Assembly: GCA_963726745.1 (NCBI GenBank)
Contig: CAVSDR010000006.1
Span: 128,001 to 192,000, forward strand
Length of the DNA stretch: 64,000 bases
Source of the DNA: an uncultured Verrucomicrobiae bacterium
GTDB lineage: Bacteria; Verrucomicrobiota; Verrucomicrobiia; Chthoniobacterales; UBA10450
Reading direction: 5' to 3'
In this document: positions 1-61,268 of the stretch, one piece after another
How positions within the stretch are numbered: the stretch's first letter is position 1
How the letters are laid out: every line of letters begins with the position of its first letter
Notes under the pieces: model-generated
Told to the model about the DNA's origin: nothing
The model's input: the letters and a program-made list of their open reading frames with translations, nothing else
Databases searched by the model: none
Program-made: the position numbers and the translations under genes

Positions 1-465
1 CTCGAGGCTCGCATCGAAGCAGCGGTGAAGAACCCGCGCAATCTCGGCGAGATGGAGAATGCCGATGCCGTGGGCACAGTCGGCAGCCCGGACTGCGGCG
101 ACATGCTGCGGATGTGGATCAAATTTAAGGAGGAAGACGGCCGCAAGGTGATCGATCGCGCGAGCTTCCAATCCTTTGGCTGCCAGACGGCGATCGCAGT
201 CGCGAGCGTGGCCACGGAACTTTTAGCCGGCAAGACGATCGAGCAGGCACGCGCGCTCTCGGGCGAAGAATTGGCCGCGCCGCTCGGCGCTCTTCCGCCG
301 GTGCGGATTCATTGCGCGCAACTCGTCGAGGGCGCCCTGCGCAACGCGCTCTCCGGCGAAAAACCGCCGGCAACTTCATCCGCGCCTAACGAGACTGCGC
401 CCACGCTTTTCGCTCAGCTTTCCGCAAGCACCAGCGGCAAAGTGAAAGTGGTTCTGAAACCTTAG
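1..465 (+). CDS. IscU/NifU-type Fe-S cluster scaffold protein (5' end probably outside the window)
   Basis: KNPRNLG..VGSPDCGD..FQSFGC..LPPVRIHC with the three conserved Cys; the frame is open back to base 1. Confidence 0.88.
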   Translation, partial: LEARIEAAVKNPRNLGEMENADAVGTVGSPDCGDMLRMWIKFKEEDGRKVIDRASFQSFGCQTAIAVASVATELLAGKTIEQARALSGEELAAPLGALPPVRIHCAQLVEGALRNALSGEKPPATSSAPNETAPTLFAQLSASTSGKVKVVLKP

Positions 466-469
466 TCCT

Positions 470-1033
470 ATGCACGAAAACACCGAATTCACTCTCAGCC
501 GCGACACCGATGCGATCCAGATCCCGAGCGGGAACAAGACCGTGATCCCTGCCGGCACCACCGGCGTGATCACGCAGACGCTCGGCGGCAGTTACACCAT
601 CGCGACCTACCAGGGCCTCTCGCGCATTGCCGAGAAAGACCTCGACGCGCTCGGCATCGAAAAGCCGCACCTGAACGGCGACCTCGCCTCGACCGCGGCC
701 ACTTCTGGCGGCGGCGGCGAAGTCGACGAGAAAGCCGTCTGGGAGCAGCTCCGCCAGTGCTACGACCCGGAAATCCCGGTCAATATCGTCGACCTCGGCC
801 TGGTTTACGATTGCCAGCTCAAGCAGGGCGACAACGGCGGCACCAAGGTGGAAGTGAAAATGACCCTGACCGCGCCTGGCTGCGGCATGGGCCCCGCCAT
901 TGCCCACGATGCCCAGAGCAAAATCATGAGCATCGAGGGCGTGGACGAAGCGCAAGTGGACTTGGTTTGGGATCCACCGTGGAACCAGAACATGATCAGC
1001 GAAGCCGGCCGAATGAAACTCGGCATGGTCTGA
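470..1033 (+). CDS. sufT: Fe-S cluster assembly protein SufT (DUF59/PaaD-like)
   Basis: YDPEIPVNIVDLGLVY, MTLTAPGCGMG and LVWDPPW motifs, plus the SufT-type N-terminal domain. Confidence 0.88.
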   Translation: MHENTEFTLSRDTDAIQIPSGNKTVIPAGTTGVITQTLGGSYTIATYQGLSRIAEKDLDALGIEKPHLNGDLASTAATSGGGGEVDEKAVWEQLRQCYDPEIPVNIVDLGLVYDCQLKQGDNGGTKVEVKMTLTAPGCGMGPAIAHDAQSKIMSIEGVDEAQVDLVWDPPWNQNMISEAGRMKLGMV

Positions 1034-1064
1034 GCGTCTTCCGGTCCCGGCGCCTCTTGATTGG

Positions 1065-7986: not shown

Positions 7987-9357
7987 TTGAAGCTTTCCGA
8001 GATCGACGCCACCCTGCGCGAGATTCGCGTCTCGCCGGTGAAGACGCTGGGGCAGAATTTTCTGCACGACCGCAACCTCGCGCGCTGGATCGTCGCGCGG
8101 GCCAACCTCACGGCCGACGATTACGTGGTCGAAGTGGGGCCGGGACTCGGCGCGCTCACGGAGCACATCCTCGCCACCGGCGCCCGCGTGCTCGCGATCG
8201 AGAAGGATGCACGACTGGCGAATTTTCTCCGCGAACGCTTCGCGGGCGAGCGACTGGAGATCATCCATGGCGACGCGCTCGACTTCGATGTGCGGCAGCT
8301 TTGGGCGCAGCCGCAGGTGAAGTTCATCGGCAACCTGCCGTATAATATTTCCAGCCAGCTGGTGCTGCAGTTTACGCGGTATCCAAGCCCCATTTCTCTC
8401 TGGTTGTGCATGTTACAGAAGGAAATGGCGAAGCGCCTCGCGGCGATTCCGGGCTCGGCGGACTACGGCGCGCTCAGCCTGCTGGTGCAGGTGCGCTATC
8501 GCGTGGACTACCTGCGCACCGTCCCGGCGAGCGTCTTTCTGCCGCGGCCGGAAGTGGACTCGGCCTTCGTCCAGCTCTCGCCGCGGCCGGCGGGCGAGCT
8601 GCCTTATTTCGATGCGGAATTGTGGACGCGGCTGGTGAAGCGCGGCTTCTCTCAACGGCGCAAGCAGCTGCAGAAATTGCTGCGCGAAGAGGTGACGGAC
8701 TGGGCCGGCGCGGCCGAGGCGGCGGGCTGTGGGCTGCAGGCGCGCGCGGAAGAGTTGGCGCTCGAACAATGGATCGCGCTGGCTAATTTCGTGCGGCCAC
8801 CGCCGACGGCGGCAACCGCGAACGACCTCGCAGGCCGCTTTGCGGTCGTGGACGCCGCAGATCACGTCACCGGCGCCGCGCCCCGCAGCGAAGTGCATGG
8901 GAATAACTTGCTCCATCGCGCGGTCCACCTGCTCCTGCGGAACGATCGCGGCGAGATCTTTCTGCAAAAACGCTCGCCCCTGAAGGACCGGCATCCAGGC
9001 GTGTGGGATTCGAGTGCCGCGGGCCATGTAGACGAGGGCGAAGACTACGACGTGACCGCGCAGCGCGAACTCAAGGAAGAACTCGGCGTCGCCGCCGAAC
9101 TGACGCGCGTGCTCAAGCTCCCGGCCTCAGCCCGCACCGGGCAGGAGTTTATCTGGCTCTATTGCGGCCGGCACAATGGGCCCTTTCGGCTGGCCCACAG
9201 CGAGATCGAGCTGGGGGAGTTTTTCCCACCTGAGGTGATCACCGCATGGCTGCACGCGCGGCCGGACGATTTCGCGCCCGGCTTTGTGGAATGCTGGGAA
9301 GCCTGGCGGAAAACAGACAGCGCTTTCGCTGCCGGGATGCCGCCAAAACCGGCCTAA
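7987..9357 (+). CDS. rsmA: 16S rRNA m6,2A dimethyltransferase RsmA/KsgA fused to a C-terminal Nudix hydrolase
   Basis: LGQNFL, VEVGPGLGALT, GNLPYNISS, FSQRRKQL, then the Nudix box GHVDEGEDYDVTAQRELKEELG in the same frame. Confidence 0.92.
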   Translation: MKLSEIDATLREIRVSPVKTLGQNFLHDRNLARWIVARANLTADDYVVEVGPGLGALTEHILATGARVLAIEKDARLANFLRERFAGERLEIIHGDALDFDVRQLWAQPQVKFIGNLPYNISSQLVLQFTRYPSPISLWLCMLQKEMAKRLAAIPGSADYGALSLLVQVRYRVDYLRTVPASVFLPRPEVDSAFVQLSPRPAGELPYFDAELWTRLVKRGFSQRRKQLQKLLREEVTDWAGAAEAAGCGLQARAEELALEQWIALANFVRPPPTAATANDLAGRFAVVDAADHVTGAAPRSEVHGNNLLHRAVHLLLRNDRGEIFLQKRSPLKDRHPGVWDSSAAGHVDEGEDYDVTAQRELKEELGVAAELTRVLKLPASARTGQEFIWLYCGRHNGPFRLAHSEIELGEFFPPEVITAWLHARPDDFAPGFVECWEAWRKTDSAFAAGMPPKPA

Positions 9358-9719
9358 CGACGGCGCGAGGCAGCAGCGGACTTCTTGCTGCCGCCGCTCT
9401 TCTTCGCGGCCGACTTGCCTTTGGCGGTGGATTTTCCCTTGGCCGCAGATTTCGCTTTCGTCGCCTGCGGCTTCTCCGCCGCCACGGGGCCGCGGAAAAC
9501 CCGGTCCGGCAGATCGGACATGGCGGATTTTTTGAACTTCCGCGCGGCGCGGCGGGCGCCTTCCTTCCCGCCATAGACGGTGTCGCTAAACATCTTCGTG
9601 ACCGCGCGGTCGCCGCGGAGGAAGTGCACCTGGAAGCCATGGGTTTGCTTCTTCGAACGCGGCTTGGAATCAATGCGCCGGATGTTTTCTTCGGAGTCGG
9701 GATTGGCTCGTTTTTTCAT
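9354..9719 (-). CDS. AP2-domain-like basic DNA-binding protein with a Lys/Ala-rich tail
   Basis: IRRID..THGFQVHF..TKMFSDTVYGGKEGARRAA fits the bacterial AP2 pattern; tail AKSAAKGKSTAKGKSAAKK. Confidence 0.65.
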   Translation of the reverse strand: MKKRANPDSEENIRRIDSKPRSKKQTHGFQVHFLRGDRAVTKMFSDTVYGGKEGARRAARKFKKSAMSDLPDRVFRGPVAAEKPQATKAKSAAKGKSTAKGKSAAKKSGGSKKSAAASRRR

Positions 9720-9786
9720 GCGAATATTGCCTAACGAACGCAACCTAAAACAAAAACGGGAGGGCGCAACGGTGAAACCGCGATCT

Positions 9787-10595: not shown

Positions 10596-12365
10596 TTGAA
10601 AAAATATTTGCTCCTGCTGGCGTTGCTCGTGGCCGCGGTCTACGCGCCCGCGGTGGGAAACGGTTTTGTCTGGGACGACACCGCGCTCATCCTGCGCGAT
10701 CCCTTTATCCGCAGCTGGCGACTGATCCCGGAAGGCTTCGGGCATTTTCTTTTCACCGATGCGACGGCTTCGGATTTTTACCGGCCGATGCAACGGCTGA
10801 GCTACACGCTCGAGTATGCCGCCTTCGGTTTCCGTCCGGCGCCGTATCATGTGATCAATATCCTGCTGCACCTGGCGGCGGCCGGGGCGCTCTTCGCCTT
10901 CGCGCGGGAACTCCTGCGCTCTCTCGGCGCCAGCGAACGCCTCCGCAGCTGGGTGCCGCTGGTCGCGGCCGCGGTCTGGGCCATCCATCCGGTGCAGAGC
11001 GCGGCCGTGGTCTACATCTCTGGGCGGGCCGATGCACTCGCGGCGCTTTTCGGCTTCACCGCGCTCAGCTTTGCACTCGTTAGCCAGCGACTTGAGCGCG
11101 GAAGAAAATGGGGGGCGCTGGCGGGGGCGACGGTGCTTTTTCTGCTCGCGGCCCTGAGCAAGGAAGCCGGGCTGATCTTCCCGGCGCTCTGGCTGATTAT
11201 TCTCGTGGTGGAGCGGAAATGGAGCTGGCCCGTGCTCGCGGTGATTGCCCTGGTCTTCGTCGGTTATCTGAGCCTGCGCGTGCCGGCGGAGCACATCGCG
11301 CCCCCGCCGCGGCCCGCGCTCCCGCTGCTCGTTAGGCCGGTGTTGGCGGCGCGGGCGGTGGCGGAATATGCGGGGCTGCTCGCGTTCCCGCTGCACCTGC
11401 GCATGGAACGCACGGTCGAGACGCAGCCGAGCGGCTTCGGCAACGCAAGCATGACCGGCGCGGCCTGGCGGGAGCTGCAGACGCTCGCCGGGGTGCTCTT
11501 GGTTCTGGCATTTGGCTGGTGGATTTGGCGCGCCCGCACGGGTGATCGCGCTGTCTATTTGTCGCTCCTGCTCACCGTTTGCAGCTATCTCCCGGTCAGC
11601 GGCGTGCTCCCGCTCAACGCCACCGTTGCGGAACATTGGCTTTACCTGCCGAGCGCTTTCCTTTTCCTCGCGATCGGCCTGCGCGTCGCGCGCTTTCGAT
11701 TCGCGGCGCGCTGGCTGGTTCCTGCGCTCGCGCTCTGGATGGCGTTTCTCGGCGGGCGCACTTTCCTGCGCACCTTTGACTGGAAGGACCAGCGCACCTT
11801 CCTCGAGCGCACGCTGGCGCAGGGCGGCGATTCCGCGCGCATGCTGATTAATCTCGCGGGCCTGGAGATGAATGAACACCACTTCGCGGAAGCCAAGGCT
11901 CATCTCCGGCGCGCGCTCGAGAAGGAACCGGAGCAACCGCTCGCGCTGCTCAATCTCGCGGCCGTGGCCTTGAAGGAAAACGATTTCGCCGCGGCTCACC
12001 AATGGCTCGACCGCGCTCTCCCGCTTCCGCAAGTGGAGGCGCAAGCGCAGGAAATGTTGACTGTGCTGGAGCACAAAGAGAACGGGCAGATCGATCTCCG
12101 CCGCCTGCGCCTGGCCGCGCGCACCGGGCCGCCGAACTGGGCGATCGAGCAGCGTTTCGTTAGGTTACTGGCCGAGACCGGCGCGCCGGAGGCCGCGATC
12201 GCCGAGCTCCAGCATTGTCTCGAGAGCCAATGGTATCGCGCAGAAAGCTGGCAATTACTCAGCGAATTGGCGCAGGCCCACGGCCGGGAAGCGCTTGCGG
12301 CCGAAGCCCTGGCCCACGCGCGCGCCTACGATGTCCGCCTCGGCGAAAGCCGCGCGGCCCTCTAA
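10596..12365 (+). CDS. TMTC-like polytopic membrane glycosyltransferase with C-terminal TPRs
   Basis: GFVWDD, FYRP, HPVQSAAV.YISGR, LSKE, AEHWLYLP, then helical TPR-like repeats. Confidence 0.78.
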   Translation: MKKYLLLLALLVAAVYAPAVGNGFVWDDTALILRDPFIRSWRLIPEGFGHFLFTDATASDFYRPMQRLSYTLEYAAFGFRPAPYHVINILLHLAAAGALFAFARELLRSLGASERLRSWVPLVAAAVWAIHPVQSAAVVYISGRADALAALFGFTALSFALVSQRLERGRKWGALAGATVLFLLAALSKEAGLIFPALWLIILVVERKWSWPVLAVIALVFVGYLSLRVPAEHIAPPPRPALPLLVRPVLAARAVAEYAGLLAFPLHLRMERTVETQPSGFGNASMTGAAWRELQTLAGVLLVLAFGWWIWRARTGDRAVYLSLLLTVCSYLPVSGVLPLNATVAEHWLYLPSAFLFLAIGLRVARFRFAARWLVPALALWMAFLGGRTFLRTFDWKDQRTFLERTLAQGGDSARMLINLAGLEMNEHHFAEAKAHLRRALEKEPEQPLALLNLAAVALKENDFAAAHQWLDRALPLPQVEAQAQEMLTVLEHKENGQIDLRRLRLAARTGPPNWAIEQRFVRLLAETGAPEAAIAELQHCLESQWYRAESWQLLSELAQAHGREALAAEALAHARAYDVRLGESRAAL

Positions 12366-12483
12366 ATTTTCGTTCGTTAGGCAAAACCGCGCGCCGATAC
12401 ACGCGCGCTCCTCGCTTTGCCCGAATCAAAAACTGCGGGGACTGAATAAGGTTCCCGGCAATTCGTCAGTTCTTTCCACACTT

Positions 12484-13611
12484 ATGAAAACATCCATCCA
12501 ATTCGGGGCATTCATGGCGGCGGTGGGTCTCGCCTTTGCTTCCGCACACGCACAGACCCAGGCGACCACCAGCACCAGCTCGACCACAGAGTATGTCCAG
12601 AGCAGCAAAATTATCGGCAGCAAGATTCGCGGCTCCGACGGCGCCGAGATCGGCGTGATCAAGGACATCGTCCTCGATCGCCAGACCGGTTGCATGGCGT
12701 ACACCGTCCTCGAAACCGGCGGCGCGGCGAATGTCGCGGCCAGCAGCGGCGGTTCCTCGTCGCGCACTTCCAGCACGACGACCACAACCCGCAAGACCGT
12801 GGCGATGCCTTGGACCGCGGTGACGACCACCAGCGACCCAACGGTCTACACCACCTCGATTCAACGCGAGCGCATCTACAGCGCGCCAGTGGTGGATTAC
12901 AACCACATCGAGCAATACGGCCGCCCGGATTACATCAGCAATGTCTACAGCTACTACGGCGTGCAGCCAGCCGTGGGCGTGAACATCGGCATCTCCGGCA
13001 GCTCCACCCGTGCGAACACGACCACGCAGACCGGCTACGGTGCTTCCACCAACGCGACCGCGCCAGCGACCACCTCGACGCAGACGGGTTACAGCGCCTC
13101 CACGAGCGCGACCGCCAGCCCGGCGGCTTCGATCGCGCCCACCGCTGCACCTTCCGCCACGGCCGCGGCCAGCGCCACGCCGATGACGACCGCAACCCCG
13201 AAGACTGCTGTCACCCCGGCCTCGGCCACGGCGACCCCAGCCGCTTCGGCGCATAGCGCAACGACGCACGCCGCCACCCCGGCCGCGACCGCGACGCCCG
13301 CCACCAGCACCTCGAGCAAGACGAAGACCTCGACCACTGAAAGCGCTGACAAAAAAGCCGACAAGACCAGTGAGACCAAAGCCGCGACCGCGAGCGATGA
13401 ACACGCCACCGGTCACAGCGCGCACAGCAGCAGCGGCAAAGCCGAGAAAGCCACCGAGGACACCGTGAGTGGCACGAAGGCTTCGAAGTCGAGCGACGCG
13501 ACCGAGCCGACGAGCAGCAAGTCCGAGGAAAAGGCGACCAAGAAAGCCAGCAAAGGCAAAACCAGCGACGAACCCGCCAAGCCTGCGACCGACTCCACCC
13601 CGACTCCGTAA
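12484..13611 (+). CDS. Secreted PRC-barrel protein with a long Ser/Thr/Ala-rich low-complexity tail
   Basis: Signal peptide (..SAHA), SKIIGSKIRGSDGAEIGVIKDIVLD..AYTVL..AMPW PRC motif, about 200 aa of S/T/A/P then K/S/T/E. Confidence 0.8.
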   Translation: MKTSIQFGAFMAAVGLAFASAHAQTQATTSTSSTTEYVQSSKIIGSKIRGSDGAEIGVIKDIVLDRQTGCMAYTVLETGGAANVAASSGGSSSRTSSTTTTTRKTVAMPWTAVTTTSDPTVYTTSIQRERIYSAPVVDYNHIEQYGRPDYISNVYSYYGVQPAVGVNIGISGSSTRANTTTQTGYGASTNATAPATTSTQTGYSASTSATASPAASIAPTAAPSATAAASATPMTTATPKTAVTPASATATPAASAHSATTHAATPAATATPATSTSSKTKTSTTESADKKADKTSETKAATASDEHATGHSAHSSSGKAEKATEDTVSGTKASKSSDATEPTSSKSEEKATKKASKGKTSDEPAKPATDSTPTP

Positions 13612-13642
13612 GGAATCGCGGAAGGTCAAAGAAAACTAGTTC

Positions 13643-13682
13643 ACGGCAGGAGTGGCCTCGCGCTGCTCCTGCCGTTTCTTTT
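13643..13682 (+). terminator. Intrinsic terminator after the PRC-barrel gene
   Basis: ACGGCAGGAGTGGC/GCTGCTCCTGCCGT hairpin followed by TTCTTTT. Confidence 0.7.
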
Positions 13683-13689
13683 GCAATCG

Positions 13690-14946: not shown

Positions 14947-14995
14947 GGAATTGCCGATTGCAGAGGTCAACGCCGCGAATGTAAACCATAAACCA

Positions 14996-17641: not shown

Positions 17642-17659
17642 GGGGGGCAACAGAAAAGC

Positions 17660-46075: not shown

Positions 46076-46091
46076 AGCCAGCAGAATGCCA
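46076..46091 (-). promoter_or_regulatory. Putative sigma54 (-24/-12) promoter for the hsp20 pair
   Basis: Minus strand TGGCATTCTGCTGGCT, with GG and GC exactly 10 nt apart; AAGGAA RBS downstream. Confidence 0.45.
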
Positions 46092-46286: not shown

Positions 46287-46976
46287 ATGAAGTTTCTCCT
46301 CACGAACGACGATGGCATCGATGCCGCGGGAATCGAGGCGTTGCATCGCGCAGTCGAGCCGTTTGGTGAAGCGGTCATCGTGGCACCGGCCGGGCCGCAG
46401 TCTGGTGTAAGTCATCGGGTGACCTGGCAGGAAGGGGTAAGGATCGAGCCGCGCGGTCCGCGACGTTTCGCCGTCCATGGAACGCCGGCGGATTGTGTGC
46501 GCCTGGGTTTGCGGCATCTCCTGCCGGACGCGGATTGGATCCTGAGCGGGATCAATCACGGCTCGAACCTTGGCGCGGACATGCACTACTCCGGGACCGT
46601 GGCTGCCGTGCGCGAGGCCGTGCTCCATGGCTGGCCCGGCATTGCTTTCTCACAATATCACGAGCCACAAGGCGACTTCGATTGGGACCGCGCCACCCGC
46701 TGGCTGGGACCGCTCCTCCAGGACTTGTTAGACCGGCCCCGAGAGCGTGGTTCGTTTTACAACGTCAACCTGCCGGCGCGTCCGGCCGACGCCGACGAGC
46801 CGGAGGTGGTCTGGTGTCCGCTCGATCCGGCGCCGCTTCCCCTCAACTATCGTCACGAAGAGGCGAGCGACCTCTATTTTGCCGGCGACTATCACGCGCG
46901 GCCGCGCACGCCCGGCGCTGATGTGGACGTCTGTTTCGGCGGGCGGATTGCACTGACCCAGATCCGACTGCTCTAG
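46287..46976 (+). CDS. surE: 5'/3'-nucleotidase SurE
   Basis: LLTNDDGI, VAP..QSG, GTPADCV, SGINHGSNLG..YSGTVAA. Confidence 0.95.
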   Translation: MKFLLTNDDGIDAAGIEALHRAVEPFGEAVIVAPAGPQSGVSHRVTWQEGVRIEPRGPRRFAVHGTPADCVRLGLRHLLPDADWILSGINHGSNLGADMHYSGTVAAVREAVLHGWPGIAFSQYHEPQGDFDWDRATRWLGPLLQDLLDRPRERGSFYNVNLPARPADADEPEVVWCPLDPAPLPLNYRHEEASDLYFAGDYHARPRTPGADVDVCFGGRIALTQIRLL

Positions 46977-48283: not shown

Positions 48284-48404
48284 TCCGCGACGAATATAGC
48301 CGCCGCGCAAGGGTTGGCGCGTCGAAAAACAGACGACAACTTCGCCGTCCCGTTCCGAGAACGGTGGCGGCAAAAAGATTCCGAAAAAAGTTTCGAAATC
48401 TTGT

Positions 48405-48432
48405 TTGACGGATTCGACGGACCTCCTATCTT
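48405..48432 (+). promoter_or_regulatory. rRNA promoter
   Basis: TTGACG-16 nt-TATCTT; a 16-nt spacer is typical of rrn promoters. Confidence 0.6.
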
Positions 48433-48561
48433 GCTCGTCCCGCAACACTGCGGCCTCGGAAGTTCCGAGGTGTTCTTCGCCTCCTGGCTCACTGCGAGCT
48501 GGCTGCTTGATTTCGATCAAATGGCCGCTATGCGGATGAACTGGCGGGTGTGAAGGGCGGT

Positions 48562-48573
48562 TGATCTTTGACA
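48562..48573 (+). promoter_or_regulatory. boxA antitermination element
   Basis: TGATCTTTGACA in the 16S leader (consensus TGCTCTTTAACA). Confidence 0.7.
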
Positions 48574-48844
48574 GTGCAATTCTGGATTTCGTCATCACGA
48601 CGAAAGGAAATCCAGAAGGTAGAAGTCAGCGAAAATTGAATTGTGCGTTATTCGTTAAGTTTTCTTTGAACTAAAATTTCGCCAGTTCGCAAGAACTGGT
48701 GATCTTATTTGAAAAAGATCGGACGAACACCGGCTCTCATCCACGGATGAAAGTCGGTTTAGAATGGTCAGATTCACGTTGGTGCTTTAGCGAGCACCGA
48801 CACAAACTTTGTCCGGGATCAGCAATGATCCTCGGCTCCAAATT

Positions 48845-50414
<1,570 letters not shown>

Positions 50415-50577
50415 ATTCGTCACCACTTCGGTGGTGGTTGAATAGGTCGACGGCTAACCCTTCTTCTCTTCGGAGAGGGAGACATGCCGTTAAGACCTCG
50501 ACAAGGAAACGCGTTGAGGCCAAGGATGACCGACGGATAGCGCACAATTCAGTTTTTGTTTGCCTGCTGATTTAGAG

Positions 50578-50617
50578 AAAATGCCGAGCACGGCGACGTG
50601 TTCGGCATTTTTGTTTT
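50578..50617 (+). terminator. Intrinsic terminator downstream of the 16S gene
   Basis: AAAATGCCGAGCACG-GCGA-CGTGTTCGGCATTTT followed by TGTTTT. Confidence 0.8.
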
Positions 50618-50638
50618 CCAGCGAAGTCTCCCGGCCTC

Positions 50639-50666
50639 TTGCATTCAATCCGGAGACGCCTAGACT
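50639..50666 (+). promoter_or_regulatory. Putative separate promoter for tRNA-Ala
   Basis: TTGCAT-16 nt-TAGACT, 11 nt before the tRNA and downstream of the terminator. Confidence 0.5.
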
Positions 50667-50677
50667 CCGCAGACTTC

Positions 50678-50750
50678 GGGGGCATAGCTCAGTTGGTAGA
50701 GCGCCAGCTTTGCAAGCTGGATGTCAGGGGTTCGAATCCCCTTGCCTCCA
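50678..50750 (+). tRNA. tRNA-Ala(TGC), CCA not encoded
   Basis: GGGGGCA..TAGCTCAGTTGGTAGAGC..TTTGCAA..GGTTCGAATCC..TGCCTCCA with the G3:U70 identity pair. Confidence 0.97.
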
Positions 50751-50782
50751 TTTCCCTCCGCCTGGAGGTAGAATTTAGCCAG

Positions 50783-50953
50783 CTACTTCTGCTCGTCCGG
50801 CCGCACGACGAAGCCTTCCGGCGGGATCGATAGCGGCGGCTCGTTCGAGAAAAGCCCACGGCTTCCACCCTGGCAATCTTTTCGCGGCGCGAGGTCGCGC
50901 AGTTCGATAGGGGCCTGGCCGGCTACTGGCTGCTCATCAGGGAGTTGCTTCAT
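50783..50953 (-). CDS. Small hypothetical peptide (56 aa) with a possible double-glycine leader
   Basis: MKQLPDEQPVAGQAPIELRDLAPRKDCQGG-SRGLFS...; AAGGAG upstream. Confidence 0.4.
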   Translation of the reverse strand: MKQLPDEQPVAGQAPIELRDLAPRKDCQGGSRGLFSNEPPLSIPPEGFVVRPDEQK

Positions 50954-51131
50954 TTTTGAAAACGACGACTCCTTCGACACGGAAACAGTGCTCACGTCAA
51001 CACTTCTTCGGCTTTCCCTCCGGAAACGGATGCAAAATCTGCGCGCGCCGCACGATTTCGCATTGCGCCAGAACGTGCGCGTGCTAAATGCATAATCCCT
51101 CGCCGGTCCTCTCAGAGGGCTGGTAAATTTT

Positions 51132-51205
51132 GGGCCTGTAGCTCAGTTGGTTAGAGCATGCGCTTGATAAGCGCAGGGTCACTGGTTCGAGCCCAGTCAG
51201 GCCCA
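51132..51205 (+). tRNA. tRNA-Ile(GAT), CCA not encoded
   Basis: GGGCCTG TAGCTCAGTTGGTTAGAGC..TTGATAA..GGTTCGAGCC..CAGGCCCA. Confidence 0.97.
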
Positions 51206-51667
51206 CTTCCCGATCGCACTTGTCTCAGCGGCGCGCTGCCGCATGCAGATCCAGTAGGCTAAAATTCCCACCGCCGCACCCGCGCAATCCAGGAGCACAT
51301 CGCGCGGCGAAGCCGTGCGCGAGCTCACAAAACTCTGGTGCCACTCGTCCGACGCCGCATACATCGCCGCGGCCGACCAGGCGCCGATCGCGTGCAACCA
51401 AACGATTCTCCGCTGCCTGCGTAATGCCCGCAGGAGTAAAAGCGCGAGGATGGCATACTCGGTCACGTGCCCGGCCTTGCGCACAAGGAACTGCACCAGC
51501 AGAATCGCCTCCAACGAAATGTGCGGATTGAGCCAATGGAGAAACGGCACGATGAAACGCGACGTCTGCGCAGCCGAGCCGAGATCGGTCGAGGCGCTGA
51601 AAATAAGCAACATCCAGGCAAGCACGGGCATCCATGCATGGACGAGCGGAGGTAGCTTTCTCTTCAC
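51197..51667 (-). CDS. VanZ family membrane protein
   Basis: WMLLIF.AS, VRKAGHVTEYAIL, YAASDEWHQSFV..R..SPRDV.LD. Confidence 0.9.
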   Translation of the reverse strand: MKRKLPPLVHAWMPVLAWMLLIFSASTDLGSAAQTSRFIVPFLHWLNPHISLEAILLVQFLVRKAGHVTEYAILALLLLRALRRQRRIVWLHAIGAWSAAAMYAASDEWHQSFVSSRTASPRDVLLDCAGAAVGILAYWICMRQRAAETSAIGKWA

Positions 51668-51726
51668 GACGCCCGCACTCTAGAAATGCCAGGCTCACTT
51701 CACAATCCGCCGTCCGCCGTTCGCTC

Positions 51727-52683
51727 ATGTCTTTAGCCGACAACCTCACTCAGCCGCTTTCGTTCACGCCGATCTTTCAGGAACGCGTCTGGGGCGGTCG
51801 CCGTCTGGAGAGCCTCTTCGGCAAAGCGCTGCCGCCCGCGGCGAAAATTGGCGAGTCGTGGGAGATCGTGGACCGCGCGGAGGCGCAAAGCGTGGTCGCC
51901 CGTGGCGCGCTGGCCGGGCGGACCCTGCACGAACTGTGGACCGAGCAACGCGCGGAGATTTTCGGCGAGATCGCACCGAGCGATCGCTTCCCGCTCCTGA
52001 TCAAGCTCCTCGACGCTCAGGACGTGCTTTCGCTTCAGGTCCATCCTCCGGCGGACGTCGCCGAAGACCTCGGCGGCGAGCCAAAGACCGAATGCTGGTA
52101 CATCGCCGACGCCGCCCCGGGAGCCGAGCTCTTCGTCGGGCTCCGCCGCGGGGCGACGCGCGCGCGGGTTGAGCAGGCTCTGCATACCGGCGGCTTGGAG
52201 CAGCAGGTCCACCGCGTGGCCGCGCGCGCGGGCGACACCATGTTTCTGCCCAGCGGTCGCATGCACGCGATTGGCGCCGGCTATGTGATTTTCGAGATTC
52301 AACAGAATAGCGACACCACTTACCGCATCTACGATTGGGATCGCGTGGATGAAAACGGCGTCGGCCGGAAATTGCACGTTGAGGAATCCTTGCGCTCGAT
52401 CGACTTCGACGACTTCGAGCCCGGGCTGGCCCAGCCCGCAGGCGAAACTCTCGTGCGCGATCCGCTTTTCCGGATCGATAAGTGGGAACTGACCGCCCCG
52501 CGCGCGGTTTCGCCGCGCGGAACTTTCGCCATTCTCGGCGGCTTAGCCGGCAAGTTCACCTGCGCTGGCGCGGCCGCGGGCCCCGGCGAGTTTCTCCTCG
52601 TGCCCGCCGCGCTTGCCGAGCGTGAGCTTCGCCCCTTGGCAGCGGATACCTCGCTCCTGCGGATCACCCTCGATCCGCCCTAA
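51727..52683 (+). CDS. manA: Type I mannose-6-phosphate isomerase
   Basis: ERVWGG, GESWE, FPLLIKLLDA..LSLQVHP, KTECWY, HAIG, EIQQNSDTTYR. Confidence 0.9.
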   Translation: MSLADNLTQPLSFTPIFQERVWGGRRLESLFGKALPPAAKIGESWEIVDRAEAQSVVARGALAGRTLHELWTEQRAEIFGEIAPSDRFPLLIKLLDAQDVLSLQVHPPADVAEDLGGEPKTECWYIADAAPGAELFVGLRRGATRARVEQALHTGGLEQQVHRVAARAGDTMFLPSGRMHAIGAGYVIFEIQQNSDTTYRIYDWDRVDENGVGRKLHVEESLRSIDFDDFEPGLAQPAGETLVRDPLFRIDKWELTAPRAVSPRGTFAILGGLAGKFTCAGAAAGPGEFLLVPAALAERELRPLAADTSLLRITLDPP

Positions 52684-52693
52684 CGAGTCGTTT

Positions 52694-53155
52694 TCAGGCG
52701 TGCGTCCCGCTCAACTCCGGCCCTGGCCAGCCGCGGCGCAGCTCCTCGACGTCGTCGATTCGCCAGGCGTTCTCCTCATGCGTCAGGCTGTAGAGGAACG
52801 AGCGCGTGGCGCCATTCGCGTGCACGATGAAAACCTGCACGATCGCGTTGCTCCCGCGCACTTTCACTTGGCCAAACTCCACCCGCGAGCCCCGGACTAC
52901 ATCGGGATAACGCTGTCGCACCATCTTTTCGAATTGCACCACAGTGAAGCGCTGCTGGACGCCGGTGGCCGCCTGCTGATACGCCGCCTGGAAATCGGCC
53001 GTGCGAAAAGCTGTGAGCTGCTGATTCACGATCGCGAAGAGCTCGCGCGGCGCGGGCGCGGTCACCTGCTCGCGAACTCGCTGAGTAATCACGAAGCCCG
53101 CCCCGCAGATGAGGAACATAAACAGAAGCACCGCCGCCTTGATCGAGTGTCTCAT
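52694..53155 (-). CDS. DUF4864-like protein
   Basis: VNQQLTAFR..DF..AY..A..F..MV...YP..WRID; N-terminal hydrophobic segment. Confidence 0.75.
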   Translation of the reverse strand: MRHSIKAAVLLFMFLICGAGFVITQRVREQVTAPAPRELFAIVNQQLTAFRTADFQAAYQQAATGVQQRFTVVQFEKMVRQRYPDVVRGSRVEFGQVKVRGSNAIVQVFIVHANGATRSFLYSLTHEENAWRIDDVEELRRGWPGPELSGTHA

Positions 53156-53182
53156 CCGCGAAAGCCGATCCTAGCAGGGACG

Positions 53183-53491
53183 TCAAGCCGCCGCGCCGCC
53201 CAGCCGTCGGAGGTATTGATAGGAATAAATTCCCGTCTCGTGGCCATCGGCCCAGCGCGGCAAGAGCGCATATCCGCCGACAAAATTCCACGCGCGCAAT
53301 TCGAAGCTCCGTGCGTTGTAGGTCACCTCCGGCCGCAGGACATGCCCGAGCACATCCGGCTCGCCGCCACAGGCCGCGCAGGGACAGGCGCGCCGGAGCA
53401 CTTCCAGCGCGATATAAGACTCCGTGCCGTCGCTCCAGCTCAGGGCCATCTCCTGGCCGATTAACTGCACGTCTTTGACCTCGAGACGCAT
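53183..53491 (-). CDS. DUF971 / GBBH N-terminal-like metal-binding protein
   Basis: WSDG..LRRACPCAAC..VGGYAL..WADGHETGIYS. Confidence 0.88.
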   Translation of the reverse strand: MRLEVKDVQLIGQEMALSWSDGTESYIALEVLRRACPCAACGGEPDVLGHVLRPEVTYNARSFELRAWNFVGGYALLPRWADGHETGIYSYQYLRRLGGAAA

Positions 53492-53494
53492 GGC

Positions 53495-54175
53495 CTAACG
53501 ATCTCCGAAAATCGCCGTGCCTACGCGCACCAGCGTGGCCCCTTCCTCGATCGCGACCGCGAAGTCGTTGCTCATCCCCATGGAGAGCTGCGGCAATTTG
53601 ACGGCAAATTCACTTTCCAAGGCGTCGCGCAGCTCCCGGAGCATGATGAAGAAGGAGCGGGAATCCTCCGGCTCGGCCGAGAATGGCGGGATGCACATCA
53701 GCCCCTCGATGTTCAGCCGGCCGAGCGCGAGCAGCGTTTCCATCTCGCGGCGCAGTTGCTCGGGCGCGAACCCGATCTTGCTCCCCTCGCCGGCCACATT
53801 CACCTCCAGGAAAACGCGCGGCCGCAACCCCTCCTCCGCCGCGATCCGGTCGACGTCCTCGGCCAGGCCTAACGAGTCGACGCTGTGGAAAAGCTCGAAG
53901 AGCGGGAGCGCGTGGCGAATCTTGTTCTTTTGCAGGTGCCCGATGAAATGCCAGCGCACCGCGGAGGGAAGCAGCGGGATTTTGCTGCGCGCCTCCTGCA
54001 CCCGGCTCTCGCCAAAAATCGCCTGCCCGGCATCGAAAGCTGCGCGCACTTTCTCGGCCTCCTGCTTTTTCGAGACCGCGACCAGCTCCACTTCCGTAGC
54101 CGCGCGGCCCGCCGTGGCCAAAGCGTCGGCTATTTCCGCGCGCACCTGCTCGAGCTTGTCGGAGATCGAATCCAT
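53495..54175 (-). CDS. yggS: PLP homeostasis protein YggS/PROSC
   Basis: [57 protein letters not shown]. Confidence 0.95.
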
Positions 54176-54272
54176 CGCCCTGAGCTTTTGCCTGCTTGCC
54201 CCCAGACGCAACAATTCCGTCAAGCGGTCACGCGGACCACTGACGGAATTGCGCCGAAAACAGGAGTGAGTC

Positions 54273-54590
54273 CTAAGCTTTTTCGCCCTTGGATTTGCAG
54301 GCCGATTTCCAGGAGCTGAACTGCGCGGGCGAGAGCACGTCCTTCGCGCCGGCTTCCATCTTGGCCATGCTTTCCTTGGTGCAGCCGCTCTTGTCGCACT
54401 CGGCCGCGAGCGTTTCCATCTTCGCCTTTTGCTCGGCGGTCAGGTCCATCTTCGCAAAGGTTTCCAGGCAGGCGCCCTTGGTCATCTTCTTGTCACCCAT
54501 CGAGGCGCAGCAGGCTTTGTCACCAGCGAACGAAGTCGAAGCCGCCATGAGGCCTGCGGCCACGAACGCTAACAGAGAGAATTTCTTCAT
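54273..54590 (-). CDS. Small secreted Cys/Met-rich protein with LTXXQ-like motifs
   Basis: Signal peptide MKKFSLL..SFA; LTAEQKAK and VLSPAQ; six Cys. Confidence 0.7.
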   Translation of the reverse strand: MKKFSLLAFVAAGLMAASTSFAGDKACCASMGDKKMTKGACLETFAKMDLTAEQKAKMETLAAECDKSGCTKESMAKMEAGAKDVLSPAQFSSWKSACKSKGEKA

Positions 54591-54624
54591 AGTCCTCTTC
54601 AGACAGCGATTGCGCCCGGTTTGT

Positions 54625-57204
<2,580 letters not shown>

Positions 57205-57304
57205 ATGAGTTCCTCTTAAAGGACTATCGCACCCGCCCCGGCGTTCAACTGCATCGGCCCCCGCATTGCGGCGCGTAGCCTCCGCGAGTATCAGTCCTGA
57301 CCCC

Positions 57305-58580
57305 GTGGAAAACGCCGAGCTACCCTTCCGCCAACGCGCCCTCGAGCTCCTGCGTCCGGGAGCGTTCCGCCGTTACATCATCGGGTCGGCAATTTCTGAT
57401 ACCGGCACCTGGATGCAGGTGATGGCGCAGGCCTGGGTCATGAGCACGCTGACCGATCGCGCGCTCCTCCTCGGGATGGTCAACTTCGCGGCCGGCATCC
57501 CGACGCTCGCGCTCACGATGGTCGGCGGCTCGGTGGCCGATCGCTACGACAAGCGCAAGATCCTGATCATCGCGCAGGTCGCGCAGATGATCTTTGCCAT
57601 CACTCTCGGCACGCTTGTGCTCTGGAATGTGATCCAAGTCTGGCACGTGGTTGTGCTCGCGGCGCTCCTCGGCGTCTGCATCGCCTTCGAAATGCCGGCT
57701 ATTTCCGCGCTCGTGCCCGAGCTGGTGCAACGCGAGCAGATCGCGACCGCGATCGCGCTCGATCGCTCGGTCTTTCACGGCTCGCGCCTGGTCGGGCCTT
57801 CGGTGGCCGGCATGCTTGTCGGCTGGGTCGGCGCGGCGGTGGCTTTTTTTGCGAACGCGGCCTCGTTCCTCGCGCTCATGATCGCGCTGTTTACTTTGCC
57901 GGCGCGCCGCCTTGGCACCCCGGAGGAGGAAGAGCAGCGCAAGAGCGGCTTCAAGGAAGGGCTCAAGTATGTGCGGCACGATCGCACCATCCTTTGCATG
58001 ATCGGGCTGATCGCCTTGACCACGATCTTCATCTTTCCCTTTCTCTCGGTGATGCTGCCGCTCTACGTGCGCAATATTCTGCATCTTGGGCCCGGACCGG
58101 ATGGGGCTGCTCATGGCCATCTCCGGGAGCGGCTCGCTCGTCGGTTCGCTTGGCCTCCTGAGCGTGGCCCGTTCGCATCGCTTCCGCTTCATGACAGTGG
58201 CCGCGGTCATCGCCGCCTGCGCGCTCTTCGCGATGTCGCAATTGAGTAACTTCGCGCTCACCGCCGCGGCCATGGGCATTCTGGCGGTCGCGCTTTCGCT
58301 CAACTTCGGGCTCGCCGGCACGATCGTGCAGGAACGCGCTCCGAGCCATCTGCGCGGGCGCATCTCCGCGGTCTTCGGCTTGAGCTTCTTTGGCCTGATG
58401 CCGATCGCCGGCCTGCTCACGACCAGCCTGTCGGACGCGGTCGGCATGCGGACCGCGCTGTTCGCTTCCTCGATTTGCTTCGGCCTGGGTGCGCTCGTGG
58501 TGATGAACCTGGCCGGGCGCACGATCGAGGCCCGCCCGGTGGCCCCGGTCGCGGAGCCGGAGCCGGCCACCGTAGCCTAA
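57305..58580 (+). CDS. MFS transporter, DHA3/MFS_3-like (+1 frameshift near 58091)
   Basis: [33 protein letters not shown]. Confidence 0.88.
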
Positions 58581-58586
58581 CGAGCG

Positions 58587-59501
58587 ATGATCTCCTTCTC
58601 GACCTGCTGGAATTCCAGCCGCCACAAAGCAGGCGACGAGATGTTGCGCGAGATCAAGGGCGAGCTCGGCTTCACCCACATCGAGCTCGGCCACGGCACC
58701 CGCATTTCGCTCATGCCCGGTATCCAAAAAATGTTCGAGGCCGGCGAGGTCACCTTCAGCAGCCTGCACAATTTTTGCCCGCTCCCGGTCGAGGTGATGC
58801 ATGCCTCGCCCGATTGCTACAAGTTCTCCGCTCCGCGCCAGGCGGAGCGCGACCGCGCGGTCAAGCAAACGCTGCAGACGATCGATTTCGCCGAGCGCCT
58901 GGGCGCCCCCTTTGTGGTCCTCCATTGCGGCGAGGTGCCGATGAACCCGATCACCGACGAGCTCCTCGCCTTGGCAAAGAAAGGCCAGCTCCTTTCCCGC
59001 GAATACGTGCGCCAGAAGATCGCCGCGGTGAAGAAACGCGAGGAGCGCGCGCCCTGGCATCTCGACCGGGTGCGCGAATGTCTTAAGCCGATCGTGGAAC
59101 ACGCGGCCGCCAAAGGTATCCGCCTCGGAATTGAAGGCCGGCGCGGCTACGAGGAGATGCCTAACGAGCGCGAGCTTCCGCTCTTACTCGACGAACTGAA
59201 CTCACCCGCGGCGGGGTATTGGCATGACTTTGGGCACATTCAGATCAAGGAGAACCTCGGCTTTCTCAATCACGAGGAATGGCTGCGGCTGATCGGCCCG
59301 CGCGCCTTCGGCTGCCACCTCCAGGACGTCGTCTGGCCGGGGCAGGACCATCAACCGCCATTTGCCGGGCACGTCGATCTCCTTAAGCTGGTCCCGCTTC
59401 TGCCGGCGGATTGCCTGTTTGTTTGGGAACTCAGCCCGCGCAAGACCGTCCCCGAGATCCTCCGCTCGGTTGAGATTTGGAAGCAGCATTTTGCCGCATG
59501 A
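58587..59501 (+). CDS. Xylose-isomerase-like TIM-barrel protein (sugar-phosphate isomerase/epimerase family)
   Basis: SLHNFCP, VVLHCG, LGIE, WHDFGH, HLQD, DH.PP..G, WEL. Confidence 0.85.
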   Translation: MISFSTCWNSSRHKAGDEMLREIKGELGFTHIELGHGTRISLMPGIQKMFEAGEVTFSSLHNFCPLPVEVMHASPDCYKFSAPRQAERDRAVKQTLQTIDFAERLGAPFVVLHCGEVPMNPITDELLALAKKGQLLSREYVRQKIAAVKKREERAPWHLDRVRECLKPIVEHAAAKGIRLGIEGRRGYEEMPNERELPLLLDELNSPAAGYWHDFGHIQIKENLGFLNHEEWLRLIGPRAFGCHLQDVVWPGQDHQPPFAGHVDLLKLVPLLPADCLFVWELSPRKTVPEILRSVEIWKQHFAA

Positions 59502-60553
59502 AAAAAGTCCTGCTCACCAGCCTCCAGATCGCGATCACGATTGCGCTGCTCTACTTCGTCTTTCGCGATCCCGAGAAGCGCGCGCAAATGGGGACCGCGC
59601 TCCGGCTGGCAAACTATTGGTGGATCCTGCTCGGCATTGGCTGCTACGCGCTCGTGGAAGTGGCGGCGGCGATTCGCTGGCAGGTGCTCCTGCGCGTGCA
59701 GGGGATTCGCTTGAGCAATCTCCGCGTCGGCGGGCTTTTCCTCATCGGGATGTTTTACAACCAGTTCATGCCCGGCGGCACCGGTGGCGACATCATCAAG
59801 AGCTACCTCCTGCTCAAGGAAACGCCGGATAAAAAAGCCGGCGCGCTCCTCGCGGTGCTTTTCGATCGGCTGATCGGTTTGGTCGCGCTCATCACCATTA
59901 CCGGCGTGCTCATCTCGCTGCGCTACAAGTATCTCGCGCAACTCCCGGACACGCGCCGCCTGCTTTACCTGCTCCTCGCGATTCTCGGCAGCTCCATCCT
60001 CGGCCTCGCGACCACCTTCGTGATCAGCGGCTTCAATCTCTTCCGCTGGCTCCCACAACGCCTGCCAGGACGCGAGAAGTTGATCGAGGTCTCGCAGGCC
60101 TACCATCTCTACGCCCATCATTGGCGCGCGACCCTCGTCGGCTTCAGCATGTCGCTGGTCGCGCACCTGGCGACCTTCGCCACTTTTCTCTGCGTGGCCT
60201 ACGCGCTCCATGCGATGGACCAGCGGACAACTCCCCCCTCGCCCGTGCCGGTGCTCGATTTCTTCGCGATCATGCCGATCGAGCGCACGATCTCTTCGTT
60301 GCCGATCAGCTTTGGCGGCGCTGGCTGGCGCGAGATCGTGCTCCAAATCCTCCTGCATGGTCTCGCCGGGGTGCGCGAAGGCGTGGCCAATCTCATCGGC
60401 TCGCTCAGTTTCCTGATCATCCTCATTTGCTCGCTCCCGGGCGGATTGGTTTACTTCTTCTACCGTCCGAGTGGCGCGGCCGGCCATGTGAAGATGCGCG
60501 AAATGCACGAGGCCGTGGCCACGGTGCAGCATCGGCAATTCGGTGAAGATTGA
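59498..60553 (+). CDS. Lysylphosphatidylglycerol-synthase TM domain / flippase-like protein (UPF0104)
   Basis: IRWQVLL, GMFYNQFMPGGTGGDIIK, FDRLIG, LPISFGGAGWRE. Confidence 0.85.
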   Translation: MKKVLLTSLQIAITIALLYFVFRDPEKRAQMGTALRLANYWWILLGIGCYALVEVAAAIRWQVLLRVQGIRLSNLRVGGLFLIGMFYNQFMPGGTGGDIIKSYLLLKETPDKKAGALLAVLFDRLIGLVALITITGVLISLRYKYLAQLPDTRRLLYLLLAILGSSILGLATTFVISGFNLFRWLPQRLPGREKLIEVSQAYHLYAHHWRATLVGFSMSLVAHLATFATFLCVAYALHAMDQRTTPPSPVPVLDFFAIMPIERTISSLPISFGGAGWREIVLQILLHGLAGVREGVANLIGSLSFLIILICSLPGGLVYFFYRPSGAAGHVKMREMHEAVATVQHRQFGED

Positions 60554-61265
60554 GAGAAAAAGGAGCCGCGCCCGGCGGCCATTTGTCGCGGCCACGTTTG
60601 CCATGACCGCAGACGGCAAGATCACCACCCGCACCTATGCGCCGGTGGATTTCACTTCGCGCGAAGACAAGCAGCATCTTCTCCGGCAGCGCGCCCTGGC
60701 CGACGCGGTCATCGTCGGCCACAGCACGCTCAAGGCGGACAACGTCCGCCTCGGCCTGCCGAAGGGCGAACTGCGCGAGCAGCGGCTGGCTCGTGGGCAA
60801 ACCGAGGCGCCGCTGCGCGTAATCGTTTCCAACGAAGGCCGGATCGATCCCGAACTGAAAATCTTCCAGTCCACCATCTCGCCGATTGTCGTTTTCTCGA
60901 CCACCCGCATGCCGCGGCGCACGCAGAAAATCCTGCGCGAGAAAGCCACCCTGCACCTGAGCGACACCGGCGCGGTCGACCTCGCCTGGATGCTCCAGCA
61001 GCTCCGGCGGGAATACCGGGTGAAGCAGGTCGCCTGCGAAGGCGGCGCGGCGCTCTTCCGCTCCATGCTCGAGCTCGACCTGGTCGATCAGCTCAATCTC
61101 ACCATCGCGCCCATCCTTTTCGGCGGGCAAGGCGCCCCCACCCTCACCGGGACGAGCGCAGCCTTCCTCCCGGCGAGCGTTCGCGCCAAACTCACCGGGA
61201 TGCGCGTGCTCGGCGAAGAATGTTTTCTCACCTATCGGATCAAGCATCCCCAAAGGGCTGCCTAA
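60543..61265 (+). CDS. RibD C-terminal-type reductase (DHFR fold)
   Basis: RPFV..FAMTADGKI, LR..ADAVIVG..T...DN, CEGG, LVD..LTIAP.LFGG. Confidence 0.85.
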   Translation: MKIERKRSRARRPFVAATFAMTADGKITTRTYAPVDFTSREDKQHLLRQRALADAVIVGHSTLKADNVRLGLPKGELREQRLARGQTEAPLRVIVSNEGRIDPELKIFQSTISPIVVFSTTRMPRRTQKILREKATLHLSDTGAVDLAWMLQQLRREYRVKQVACEGGAALFRSMLELDLVDQLNLTIAPILFGGQGAPTLTGTSAAFLPASVRAKLTGMRVLGEECFLTYRIKHPQRAA

Positions 61266-61268
61266 CGA

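Follow-up and report, generated by a model that had tools for sequence, protein, structure and literature searches.

Occurrence of a recurrent nine-letter word in the window

The stretch analyzed here, referred to below as the window, comprises 64,000 nucleotides of an uncultured Verrucomicrobiae bacterium of the family UBA10450 (contig CAVSDR010000006.1; G000:C6:128001-192000 in our labels, where G000 is the source genome, an assembly of 3,406,779 bp in 7 contigs). It carries many copies of a nine-letter word, GCCTAACGA (W1), which had first been noticed from the letters alone. In total, 23 exact copies were found in the window, compared with an expectation of 0.40 (standard deviation 0.71, largest value 3) from 100 dinucleotide-preserving shuffles, none of which reached 23. 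The hand count of the original prediction, 25 copies of CCTAACGA with 12 on the plus and 13 on the minus strand, was reproduced exactly, as were the extension of 23 of the 25 to W1 and the two non-G exceptions at 12157 and 52679. Its base-composition estimate of about 64% GC suits the genome (~63.7%) and is slightly too high for the window (62.8%).

Genes were called in G000 by crude picks of open reading frames (ORFs) based on GC content at third codon positions (2,658 ORFs, ~82% coverage), and the frame and stop-codon counts given for W1 carry the error of these picks. Within called genes, sense copies lie at 384..392 (+), read as GCG-CCT-AAC-GAG (A-P-N-E); at 17349..17357 (−) in gene 17174-17650(−); at 26996..27004 (−; CGG-CCT-AAC-GAG) and 27545..27553 (−; CCG-CCT-AAC-GAG), both in gene 26965-28104(−); at 29535..29543 (−; CGG-CCT-AAC-GAC) in gene 28784-30781(−); at 36650..36658 (+) in gene 36454-37602(+), where CGC-CTA-ACG-AAT (R-L-T-N) uses the rare codon CTA; at 47854..47862 (−; CGC-CTA-ACG-AGA) in gene 46973-48598(−); and at 59159..59167 (+; ATG-CCT-AAC-GAG) in gene 58587-59501(+). 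Antisense copies were found at 9729..9737 (+) in gene 9354-9743(−), read as TCG-TTA-GGC (S-L-G) with the rare leucine codon TTA; at 11329..11337 (−) in gene 10596-12365(+), read as CTC-GTT-AGG-CCG (L-V-R-P) with the rare AGG; at 28750..28758 (+; ATC-GTT-AGG-CCT) in gene 28136-28783(−); at 43516..43524 (−; TCG-TTA-GGC-AGC) in gene 43324-43980(+); and at 53867..53875 (+; TCG-TTA-GGC-CTG) in gene 53495-54223(−). Copies between called genes lie at 12374..12382 (−), 13687..13695 (−), 14801..14809 (−), 43992..44000 (+) and 58575..58583 (+).

Each of the five other copies overlaps the end of a called gene and provides its stop. The TAA of the word ends gene 7987-9357(+) at 9352..9360 (+), gene 38299-40332(−) at 38296..38304 (−) and gene 60543-61265(+) at 61260..61268 (+), and the TAG of its complement ends gene 25216-26838(+) at 26832..26840 (−) and gene 53495-54223(−) at 53493..53501 (+). 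The two exceptions of the hand count are tolerated variants in position 1 of the word: ACCTAACGA at 12157..12164 (−; G>A), of a class that is 2-20 times enriched genome-wide, and CCCTAACGA at 52679..52686 (+; G>C), observed 134 times in the genome against 6.7 expected. Ten further sites that had been named as matching the CTAACGA core were all confirmed (core starts 11077, 21598, 24792, 25777, 33751, 37552, 42244, 45482, 45568 and 62698); they are position-2 variants spread over 11077..62704 (GGCTAACGA, GACTAACGA, GTCTAACGA and one CGCTAACGA), and such variants are 14-22 times enriched genome-wide.

Genome-wide over-representation of W1

The enrichment extends far beyond the window, with 1,312 copies (681 on the plus and 631 on the minus strand) distributed over all 7 contigs at one per 2.6 kb. 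Among the 9-mers of G000, only CGCGCGCGC is more frequent than W1, and none has a higher z-score. Markov models predicted 24.3 copies at order 0, 15.9-19.7 at orders 1-3 and 84 at order 4, so that W1 is 67-fold enriched over the order-3 expectation. Inside ORFs, 935 copies were observed, compared with 24.4 ± 4.1 after synonymous codons had been shuffled within each gene (a 38-fold excess with the proteins preserved) and 5.65 ± 2.65 after shuffling of codon order. The over-representation thus persists under dinucleotide- and codon-aware nulls, and the observation made by hand is confirmed as real.

According to the crude gene calls, 71% of the copies lie in genes, 20% between genes and 9% on a boundary, and those in genes comprise 423 in sense and 510 in antisense orientation. 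All four stop-free frames are used (TCG-TTA-GGC 420, nGC-CTA-ACG 220, CCT-AAC-GAn 202 and GTT-AGG 89), with rare codons involved, which bears out the earlier claim of a signal at the DNA level and not a peptide motif. Genome-wide, called genes take their stop from 141 of the copies, which contribute TAA in 77 cases and, through the opposite strand, TAG in 64. W1 is spread evenly along gene length and is 1.1-1.7 times denser in intergenic spacers than the genome mean, with convergent spacers reaching 0.67 per kb against a mean of 0.385. As a separate observation, the stops of the 2,658 crude ORFs are TAG in 960, TGA in 900 and TAA in 798 cases; this TAG share is unusually high at 64% GC and may derive partly from words bearing CTAA/TTAG or from gene-call errors.

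Sequence analysis showed that the information of W1 sits almost wholly in its nine letters. The flanks are weak (pyrimidines from −4 through −1, a G in 62% at +9, a T in 43% at +10, A/T at +13), and their preference varies between genomes. Positions 1, 2 and 8 are tolerant, with six of nine single-mismatch variants enriched 7-23-fold and the other three at 1.1-1.9 times expectation, while 15 of 18 variants at positions 3-7 and 9 fell below expectation (0.0-0.8 times) and the other three reached 1.4-2.1. The same mismatch profile was observed in a second genome of the family, G066. Such a graded profile would be expected if near-matches were being turned into matches. In effect the word is S-N-CTAAC-R-A, most often GCCTAACGA with G as the next letter.

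Strand polarity of W1 was not seen in G000 at the level of replichores, where the GC skew is weak and the assembly is in 7 contigs: bins of positive skew hold 166 plus-strand and 154 minus-strand copies and bins of negative skew 511 and 474, and 656 of 1,305 neighboring pairs lie on the same strand. Being non-palindromic and without polarity, W1 is unlike Chi, the FtsK orienting polar sequences (KOPS) or the palindromic cyanobacterial HIP1 (highly iterated palindrome), as the original prediction had argued.

Restriction to one family and turnover of sites

W1 is restricted to one family, within which lineage variants are present. All 24 sampled genomes of the same genus carry it (138-2,412 copies), and the 120 other genomes of the family, from 36 genera, hold 13 to 4,336 copies, most of them being enriched; W1 is enriched in most of the 144 other family assemblies and not confined to G000. 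None of the refuting conditions set out in the original prediction (loss of the enrichment under a dinucleotide- or codon-aware null, confinement to the window, lack of the word in other assemblies) came true. The maximum belongs to G089, with one copy per 740 bp. Counts fell to 0-19 in 16 genomes from 15 sister families of the order and to 0-12 in 149 genomes from elsewhere in the phylum, which is below the reversed-word control. These ranges hold without the five unpublished genomes of the sample (G001, G008, G042, G046 and G053). A few lineages of the family lie at or near background, such as G063 (13 copies) and G079 (22 copies); on a single-gene, midpoint-rooted ComEC tree of 45 genomes, G063 is sister to the own genus of G000.

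In 5.6 kb aligned among six genomes of the genus (~72% identity), the positions of W1 were mostly lineage-specific, with few shared. The intergenic copy at 14801 has orthologous copies in G024 and G019 and none in G013, G148 and G002, and the one at 13687 is found at the same position in G013. The copy at 17349 is a lineage-specific gain: the minus-strand frame reads V-R-P-N-D (CCT-AAC-GAC), compared with V-R-P/A-G-D in all five orthologues of the genus, so that a conserved glycine has become asparagine and two synonymous sites have changed to spell the word.

W1 also tracks native composition and is scarce in compositionally foreign DNA. The 5% most atypical windows of G000 (mean GC 60.4%) contain 0.71 copies per 10 kb, compared with 3.9-4.6 in the typical 80%, and nine of the 17 most atypical windows have none. 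The longest gap free of W1, of 35 kb, lies outside the window at G000:C7:60030-95400 and is lower in GC. It encodes a polysaccharide/O-antigen cluster with DegT aminotransferases, a Wzt-type ABC transporter, Wzy, Wzz and glycosyltransferases, which was probably acquired horizontally.

Short-range avoidance between W1 copies

The distances between copies were compared with a null that preserves the large-scale density of W1. The observed/expected ratios of W1-W1 pairs in G000 were 0.23, 0.22, 0.39 and 0.71 at 0-50, 50-100, 100-200 and 200-300 bp, respectively, and about 1 further out, and only 11 neighboring gaps were shorter than 100 bp, compared with 49.1 ± 7.2 expected. This depletion is equal for same-strand and opposite-strand pairs, which excludes deletion between direct repeats as its cause and counts against a one-sided reader such as Chi. 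Tolerated variants likewise avoid W1 (0.22, 0.44, 0.64 and 0.62). Mutual short-range avoidance of W1 copies in either orientation in G000 is, as far as we can see, a new observation.

The zone of avoidance is shorter than 100 bp in G066. In G089, where 574 copies were found in 400 kb (2.3 expected), pairs closer than 25 bp are in excess in every orientation (38 versus 21.7), and only at 100-200 bp is there a depletion, a mild one. Spacing that varies in this way between genomes is not what a fixed steric footprint would give; the pattern fits a nearby second copy that adds little, but something, to the chance of a fragment being transferred.

Second and third words in the family

An unbiased k-mer scan of 154 kb from the W1-poor G073 found a second word, TGTCGATCT (W2), whose full form, read from G066, is W-TGTCGATCTT-G. 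It occurs in 34 to 4,941 copies across the family and in 1-126 copies in 56 genomes from 15 other families. In G000 it is at background only (60 observed versus 22.4 expected) and was rejected as a word of that genome. On the ComEC tree, genera rich in W2 group in a single large clade, in which W2 replaces or accompanies W1 and which also includes some W2-poor members; a W2-rich outlier, G045 of genus g21, is placed among W2-poor genera. The ComEC match of this outlier (C9:458676-460914) consists of two overlapping pieces with internal stops, and its frame may be broken.

Both words are carried by genus g42. A stretch of 368 kb in one of its members (G066:C2:1-367827) contains 638 copies of W2 (6.0 expected, one per 577 bp) and 243 of W1 (1.9 expected), and the whole G066 genome, with 1,803 W1 and 4,941 W2, has the highest combined load; each word avoids itself there. 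Among four g42 genomes, three of seven W1 sites of G066 in 4.1 kb of alignment were absent from its three relatives, and eight of 25 W2 positions in 6.5 kb (both aligned stretches) were common to all four. Core near-matches of W1 are not in excess in G066, which, together with the G066-specific sites, indicates that W1 is maintained there, like W2, and is not a decaying relic. W2 also forms head-to-tail doublets, 37 in the 368 kb, always 15 or 16 bp apart and with spacers that vary; as 16 is not a multiple of three, this spacing is a feature of the DNA level.

The window itself contains a third word, GYYGGCTAA (W3), in 25 copies. Its context is long and degenerate, S-A-W-n-K-Y-G-Y-Y-GGCTAA-W-T-T, and its 1,139 copies in G000 (564 on the plus and 575 on the minus strand) are strand-symmetric and lie mostly inside genes, with the two commonest forms enriched 27-30-fold. 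As GYYGGCTAAW it is elevated in three of 121 family genomes, namely G000 (958), G015 of the same genus (254) and G046 (190, an unpublished genome that is the only source for this third point), and ranges from 7 to 82 in the rest. W1 and W3 have Y-Y-G-S-CTAA in common and differ in their downstream letters, and what W1 prefers weakly upstream W3 prefers strongly. W3 does not avoid W1 in G000 (0.87-1.2), a result that also serves as a control of the spacing method. The original prediction had noticed only W1, whereas the family has at least three independent words, another of which, W3, stands in the same window; this complicates a simple model of one receptor. The coexistence and independence of the words, and the near species-specificity of W3, are new here.

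Genes for DNA import and modification

Import genes were compared in five genomes (G000, G089, G066, G073 and G063). ComEC, DprA and three to four secretins were present in each, and across the family ComEC occurs in 115 of 121 genomes, or in 78 of 81 when only those of high quality are counted, mostly as intact frames of ~770 residues. G000 has a cluster resembling type II secretion systems and type IV pili, with pilins, at C2:124-136 kb, an ATPase, a row of three minor-pilin genes at C3:1032975-1034820 and, in addition, four paralogues of a short pilin. A C-terminal helix-hairpin-helix (HhH) domain of ComEA type, fused to a thermonuclease-like domain, lies in open frames of 311-375 aa in G066 (C3), G089 (C15) and G063 (C5); the fusion possibly acts in DNA import as a nuclease at the cell surface. 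In G000 the two domains are not joined: the nuclease gene (C4:17176-17874) is on one contig and a weak, 29-bit HhH fragment (C2:230178-230267) on another, and no ComEA-type HhH was detected in G073.

Several proteins were considered as receptors of the words and rejected. The nuclease-HhH fusion does not track the words, being present in G063 and not intact in G000 or G073. One minor pilin (C3:1034137-1034820) was too divergent to be traced between genera, a DUF7305 protein beside pilin-like genes near dprA occurs only in the word-less G063, and the short pilins, 61-80% identical, have three to five paralogues in all five genomes including G063. Necessary genes for import, such as ComEC, DprA and secretins, are present, but a sufficient, word-specific factor was not found among these candidates. 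Two features of the G000 gene set were noted in passing: one of three tandem pilin paralogues (C5:157722-158118) is in two pieces with a TGA between them, and two secretin matches (C4:218716-219186 and C6:319803-320228) lie in short open frames of 246 and 386 aa; frameshifts or errors of assembly in these pilus genes may be the cause.

For DNA modification, a C5 methylase was found in G000 (one gene, C5:212477-213604), G089 and G073, and Vsr only in G089 and G073. Neither a Pfam-detectable C5 methylase nor Vsr was found in G066, which is 98% complete, and Vsr is also missing from G000. As writers of the words both were rejected, since they do not track them and the genome with most words has neither.

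Interpretation of the words

The original prediction had offered three functions, namely a lineage-specific uptake sequence, a site of a nucleoid or partition protein and a modification-linked motif. The first fits best: it is favored by the restriction to one family, the graded mismatches, the depletion in foreign DNA, the redundancy of close copies and the conserved import genes, and falls short in that no receptor emerged. By analogy with known systems, we consider it about an even bet that W1 and its companions are tags resembling uptake signals and amplified by transfer-biased drive. W1 would then be a lineage tag for "self" on double-stranded DNA; a receptor specific for the word, carried by a competence apparatus of type IV pilus and ComEC, would favor the import of tagged fragments of conspecifics, and homologous recombination would then spread the alleles that carry the tag. 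The word would have spread across the chromosome by molecular drive and not by selection on each copy. That a directional drive is needed follows from the large enrichment against codon and amino-acid preference, for which selection on 1,300 separate sites would be insufficient. Binding of W1 by a receptor, a bias in uptake or another step of transfer, and the transformability of these bacteria are what we infer from the analogy.

Several observations weigh against an uptake signal. G063, which has lost W1 but for 13 copies, has the import genes just the same, so that they do not discriminate the carriers of the word; a canonical ComEA is not intact in G000; the best match to ComP_DUS (PF16732) in any of the five genomes scored 25.6 bits, below the cut-off of 27.3; and no pilin candidate tracks the words, nor was another receptor found, in a search that did not include ComN. 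Unlike the DNA uptake sequences (DUS) of Neisseriaceae and the uptake signal sequences (USS) of Pasteurellaceae, W1 in G000 rarely forms inverted pairs and is only 1.1-1.7 times denser between genes (terminators were not predicted as such). The zone of avoidance is not constant, lying below 300 bp in G000 and below 100 bp in G066 and turning into an excess below 25 bp in G089. Moreover, W1 and W2 show no cross-avoidance in G066 (ratios of 1.05, 1.21 and 1.10 at 0-200 bp), which is the main difficulty, as mutual avoidance would be expected of uptake signals that are interchangeable within one cell; the uptake reading could be rescued on this point if the receptors operated in different cells or conditions.

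The multiplicity of words can also be taken as the central feature. It is a tentative proposal, held with less confidence than the tag itself, that the words are modular, orthogonal and fast-diversifying, W1 being ancient and family-wide, W2 belonging to one clade and an outlier genus and W3 almost only to the own lineage of G000, each independently amplified to hundreds or thousands of copies with its own spacing rule; they would answer either to parallel import receptors that set recombination barriers and drive speciation in a group that ranks among the most abundant in soil, or to an unprecedented word-writing mechanism unrelated to uptake. Equally compatible with several words is a bias that acts after entry, in which the words are targets of sequence-specific DNA-binding proteins, one fast-evolving protein per word, that bias recombination or repair, for example by favoring the word-bearing strand in heteroduplex correction whatever the route of transfer. 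Unrelated words with independent loads and no cross-avoidance coexist in G066 (W1 and W2) and G000 (W1 and W3), the import genes do not track the words, the confinement of W3 to G000, G015 and one more genome is a turnover typical of fast-evolving specificity factors, and the W2 doublets, with their spacing of 15-16 bp, suggest cooperative protein binding. This explanation is nonetheless rather unlikely in our judgment: we know of no word-specific conversion system, no candidate protein was found in the genomes searched, recombination with conspecific DNA would still be required, and the orientation-independent avoidance is explained no better than by uptake.

A link to DNA modification, in which the word is the site of an orphan methyltransferase and is restored by a Vsr-like or other mismatch nickase, seems improbable. 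A mechanism of this kind has been proposed for the cyanobacterial HIP sequences, several lineage-specific words resemble a turnover of methylase specificities, and G000 does have one C5 methylase gene. But G066, with the highest combined load, lacks both C5 methylase and Vsr and G000 lacks Vsr; depletion at positions 3-7 and 9 affects 15 of 18 variants, among them transversions, and is not limited to a C-to-T position; and contiguous non-palindromic sites of 9-18 bp are atypical for methylases. The modification-linked function of the original prediction thus gained no support for the route through C5 methylase and Vsr, N6 and N4 methylases not having been searched. A regulator of a RecBCD/AddAB-type nuclease, marking self DNA like Chi during double-strand-break repair, is very improbable, although one W1 per 5.2 kb per orientation (from 1,312 copies) is close to the density of Chi in Escherichia coli: W1 lacks strand polarity at every scale, its close copies are redundant in either orientation while Chi is read from one side, so that opposite copies should not be, and a 67-fold enrichment against codon preference is far above that of known Chi sites. 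An artefact of sequencing, base-calling, assembly or codon and peptide usage, to which we attach a negligible probability, is excluded by the enrichment of W1 in most of 144 other assemblies of varied contiguity, by its survival under dinucleotide, Markov and codon-aware nulls and by its presence in four frames and both orientations.

Comparison with known systems and implications

To our knowledge, sequence-tagged recognition of self DNA has been described in two proteobacterial families only, with the DUS of Neisseriaceae and the USS of Pasteurellaceae being spread by established uptake-biased drive. The enrichment of W1 is of the same order as that of the USS and far above that of Chi. Like a USS, W1 has a non-palindromic 9-bp core with weak flanks, is equally common in both orientations, lies mostly in genes (71%) in several frames at kilobase-scale spacing, and belongs to one family with different types in sub-clades and near-matches graded by position. 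It differs in that the word is unrelated and from a different phylum, that its role in uptake is suggested by analogy and no receptor was identified, that several unrelated words are kept per genome with no cross-avoidance, and that the excess near gene ends is only modest.

The DUS are 10-12-mers with dialects and have the minor pilin ComP as receptor (Pfam ComP_DUS). Resemblance to them lies in a family-wide tag with lineage dialects that is strand-symmetric and under-represented in foreign DNA, and in the close pairs, inverted ones included, of the densest genome, G089. In contrast, no protein of the five genomes reaches the ComP_DUS cut-off, W1 in G000 avoids close pairs, where DUS form inverted-repeat terminators, and W1, W2 and W3 are different words, while DUS dialects differ by one or two letters. 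Cyanobacterial HIP1 and other highly iterated palindromes, whose function is unsettled and which have been linked to methyltransferases, are likewise hyper-abundant short words within genes that are specific to a lineage, with more than one word across relatives; the words described here are not palindromes, and neither C5 methylase nor Vsr tracks them. With Chi and with KOPS and the architecture imparting sequences (AIMS), which are polar relative to replication and only mildly enriched, W1 shares the character of an over-represented oligomer scattered along the chromosome, and it differs from them in its lack of polarity and its 67-fold enrichment.

The accessible part of one preprint describes the Pasteurellaceae USS as occurring in Hin and Apl types and as having a 9-bp core flanked by weaker preferences, with the minor pilin ComN as predicted receptor (bioRxiv 10.1101/2025.06.16.659825). 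That of another, on uptake-enhancing sequences, covers Neisseriaceae and Pasteurellaceae only and places approximately half of the DUS/USS in predicted terminators (bioRxiv 10.1101/2025.10.24.684340). A literature search with the string GCCTAACGA returned primer or oligonucleotide contexts among the matches listed, and one for uptake sequences in Verrucomicrobia/Verrucomicrobiota, Chthoniobacterales or Udaeobacter returned none among the matches listed. We thus found no published description of W1, which by analogy looks like an uptake signal in a new phylum, with a multi-word architecture that appears unprecedented.

If this reading is true, W1 would represent a third system of self-DNA tags, the first from this phylum's uncultured and apparently very abundant soil bacteria and outside the phylum of the other two, and would imply frequent recombination within species in soil by means of short DNA fragments. 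The lineage-specific gains and losses (W1 lost in G063, W2 gained in g21, W3 gained in G000 and G015) would offer natural experiments for phylogenetic profiling of the recognizing proteins, and would also allow the tags to be tested as species barriers. The words could further serve as short labels by which metagenomic contigs are assigned to these lineages and foreign DNA is recognized inside them. Among public sequencing runs, only small shares (0.13 and 0.07) were found, in one soil study, which may be the source sample.

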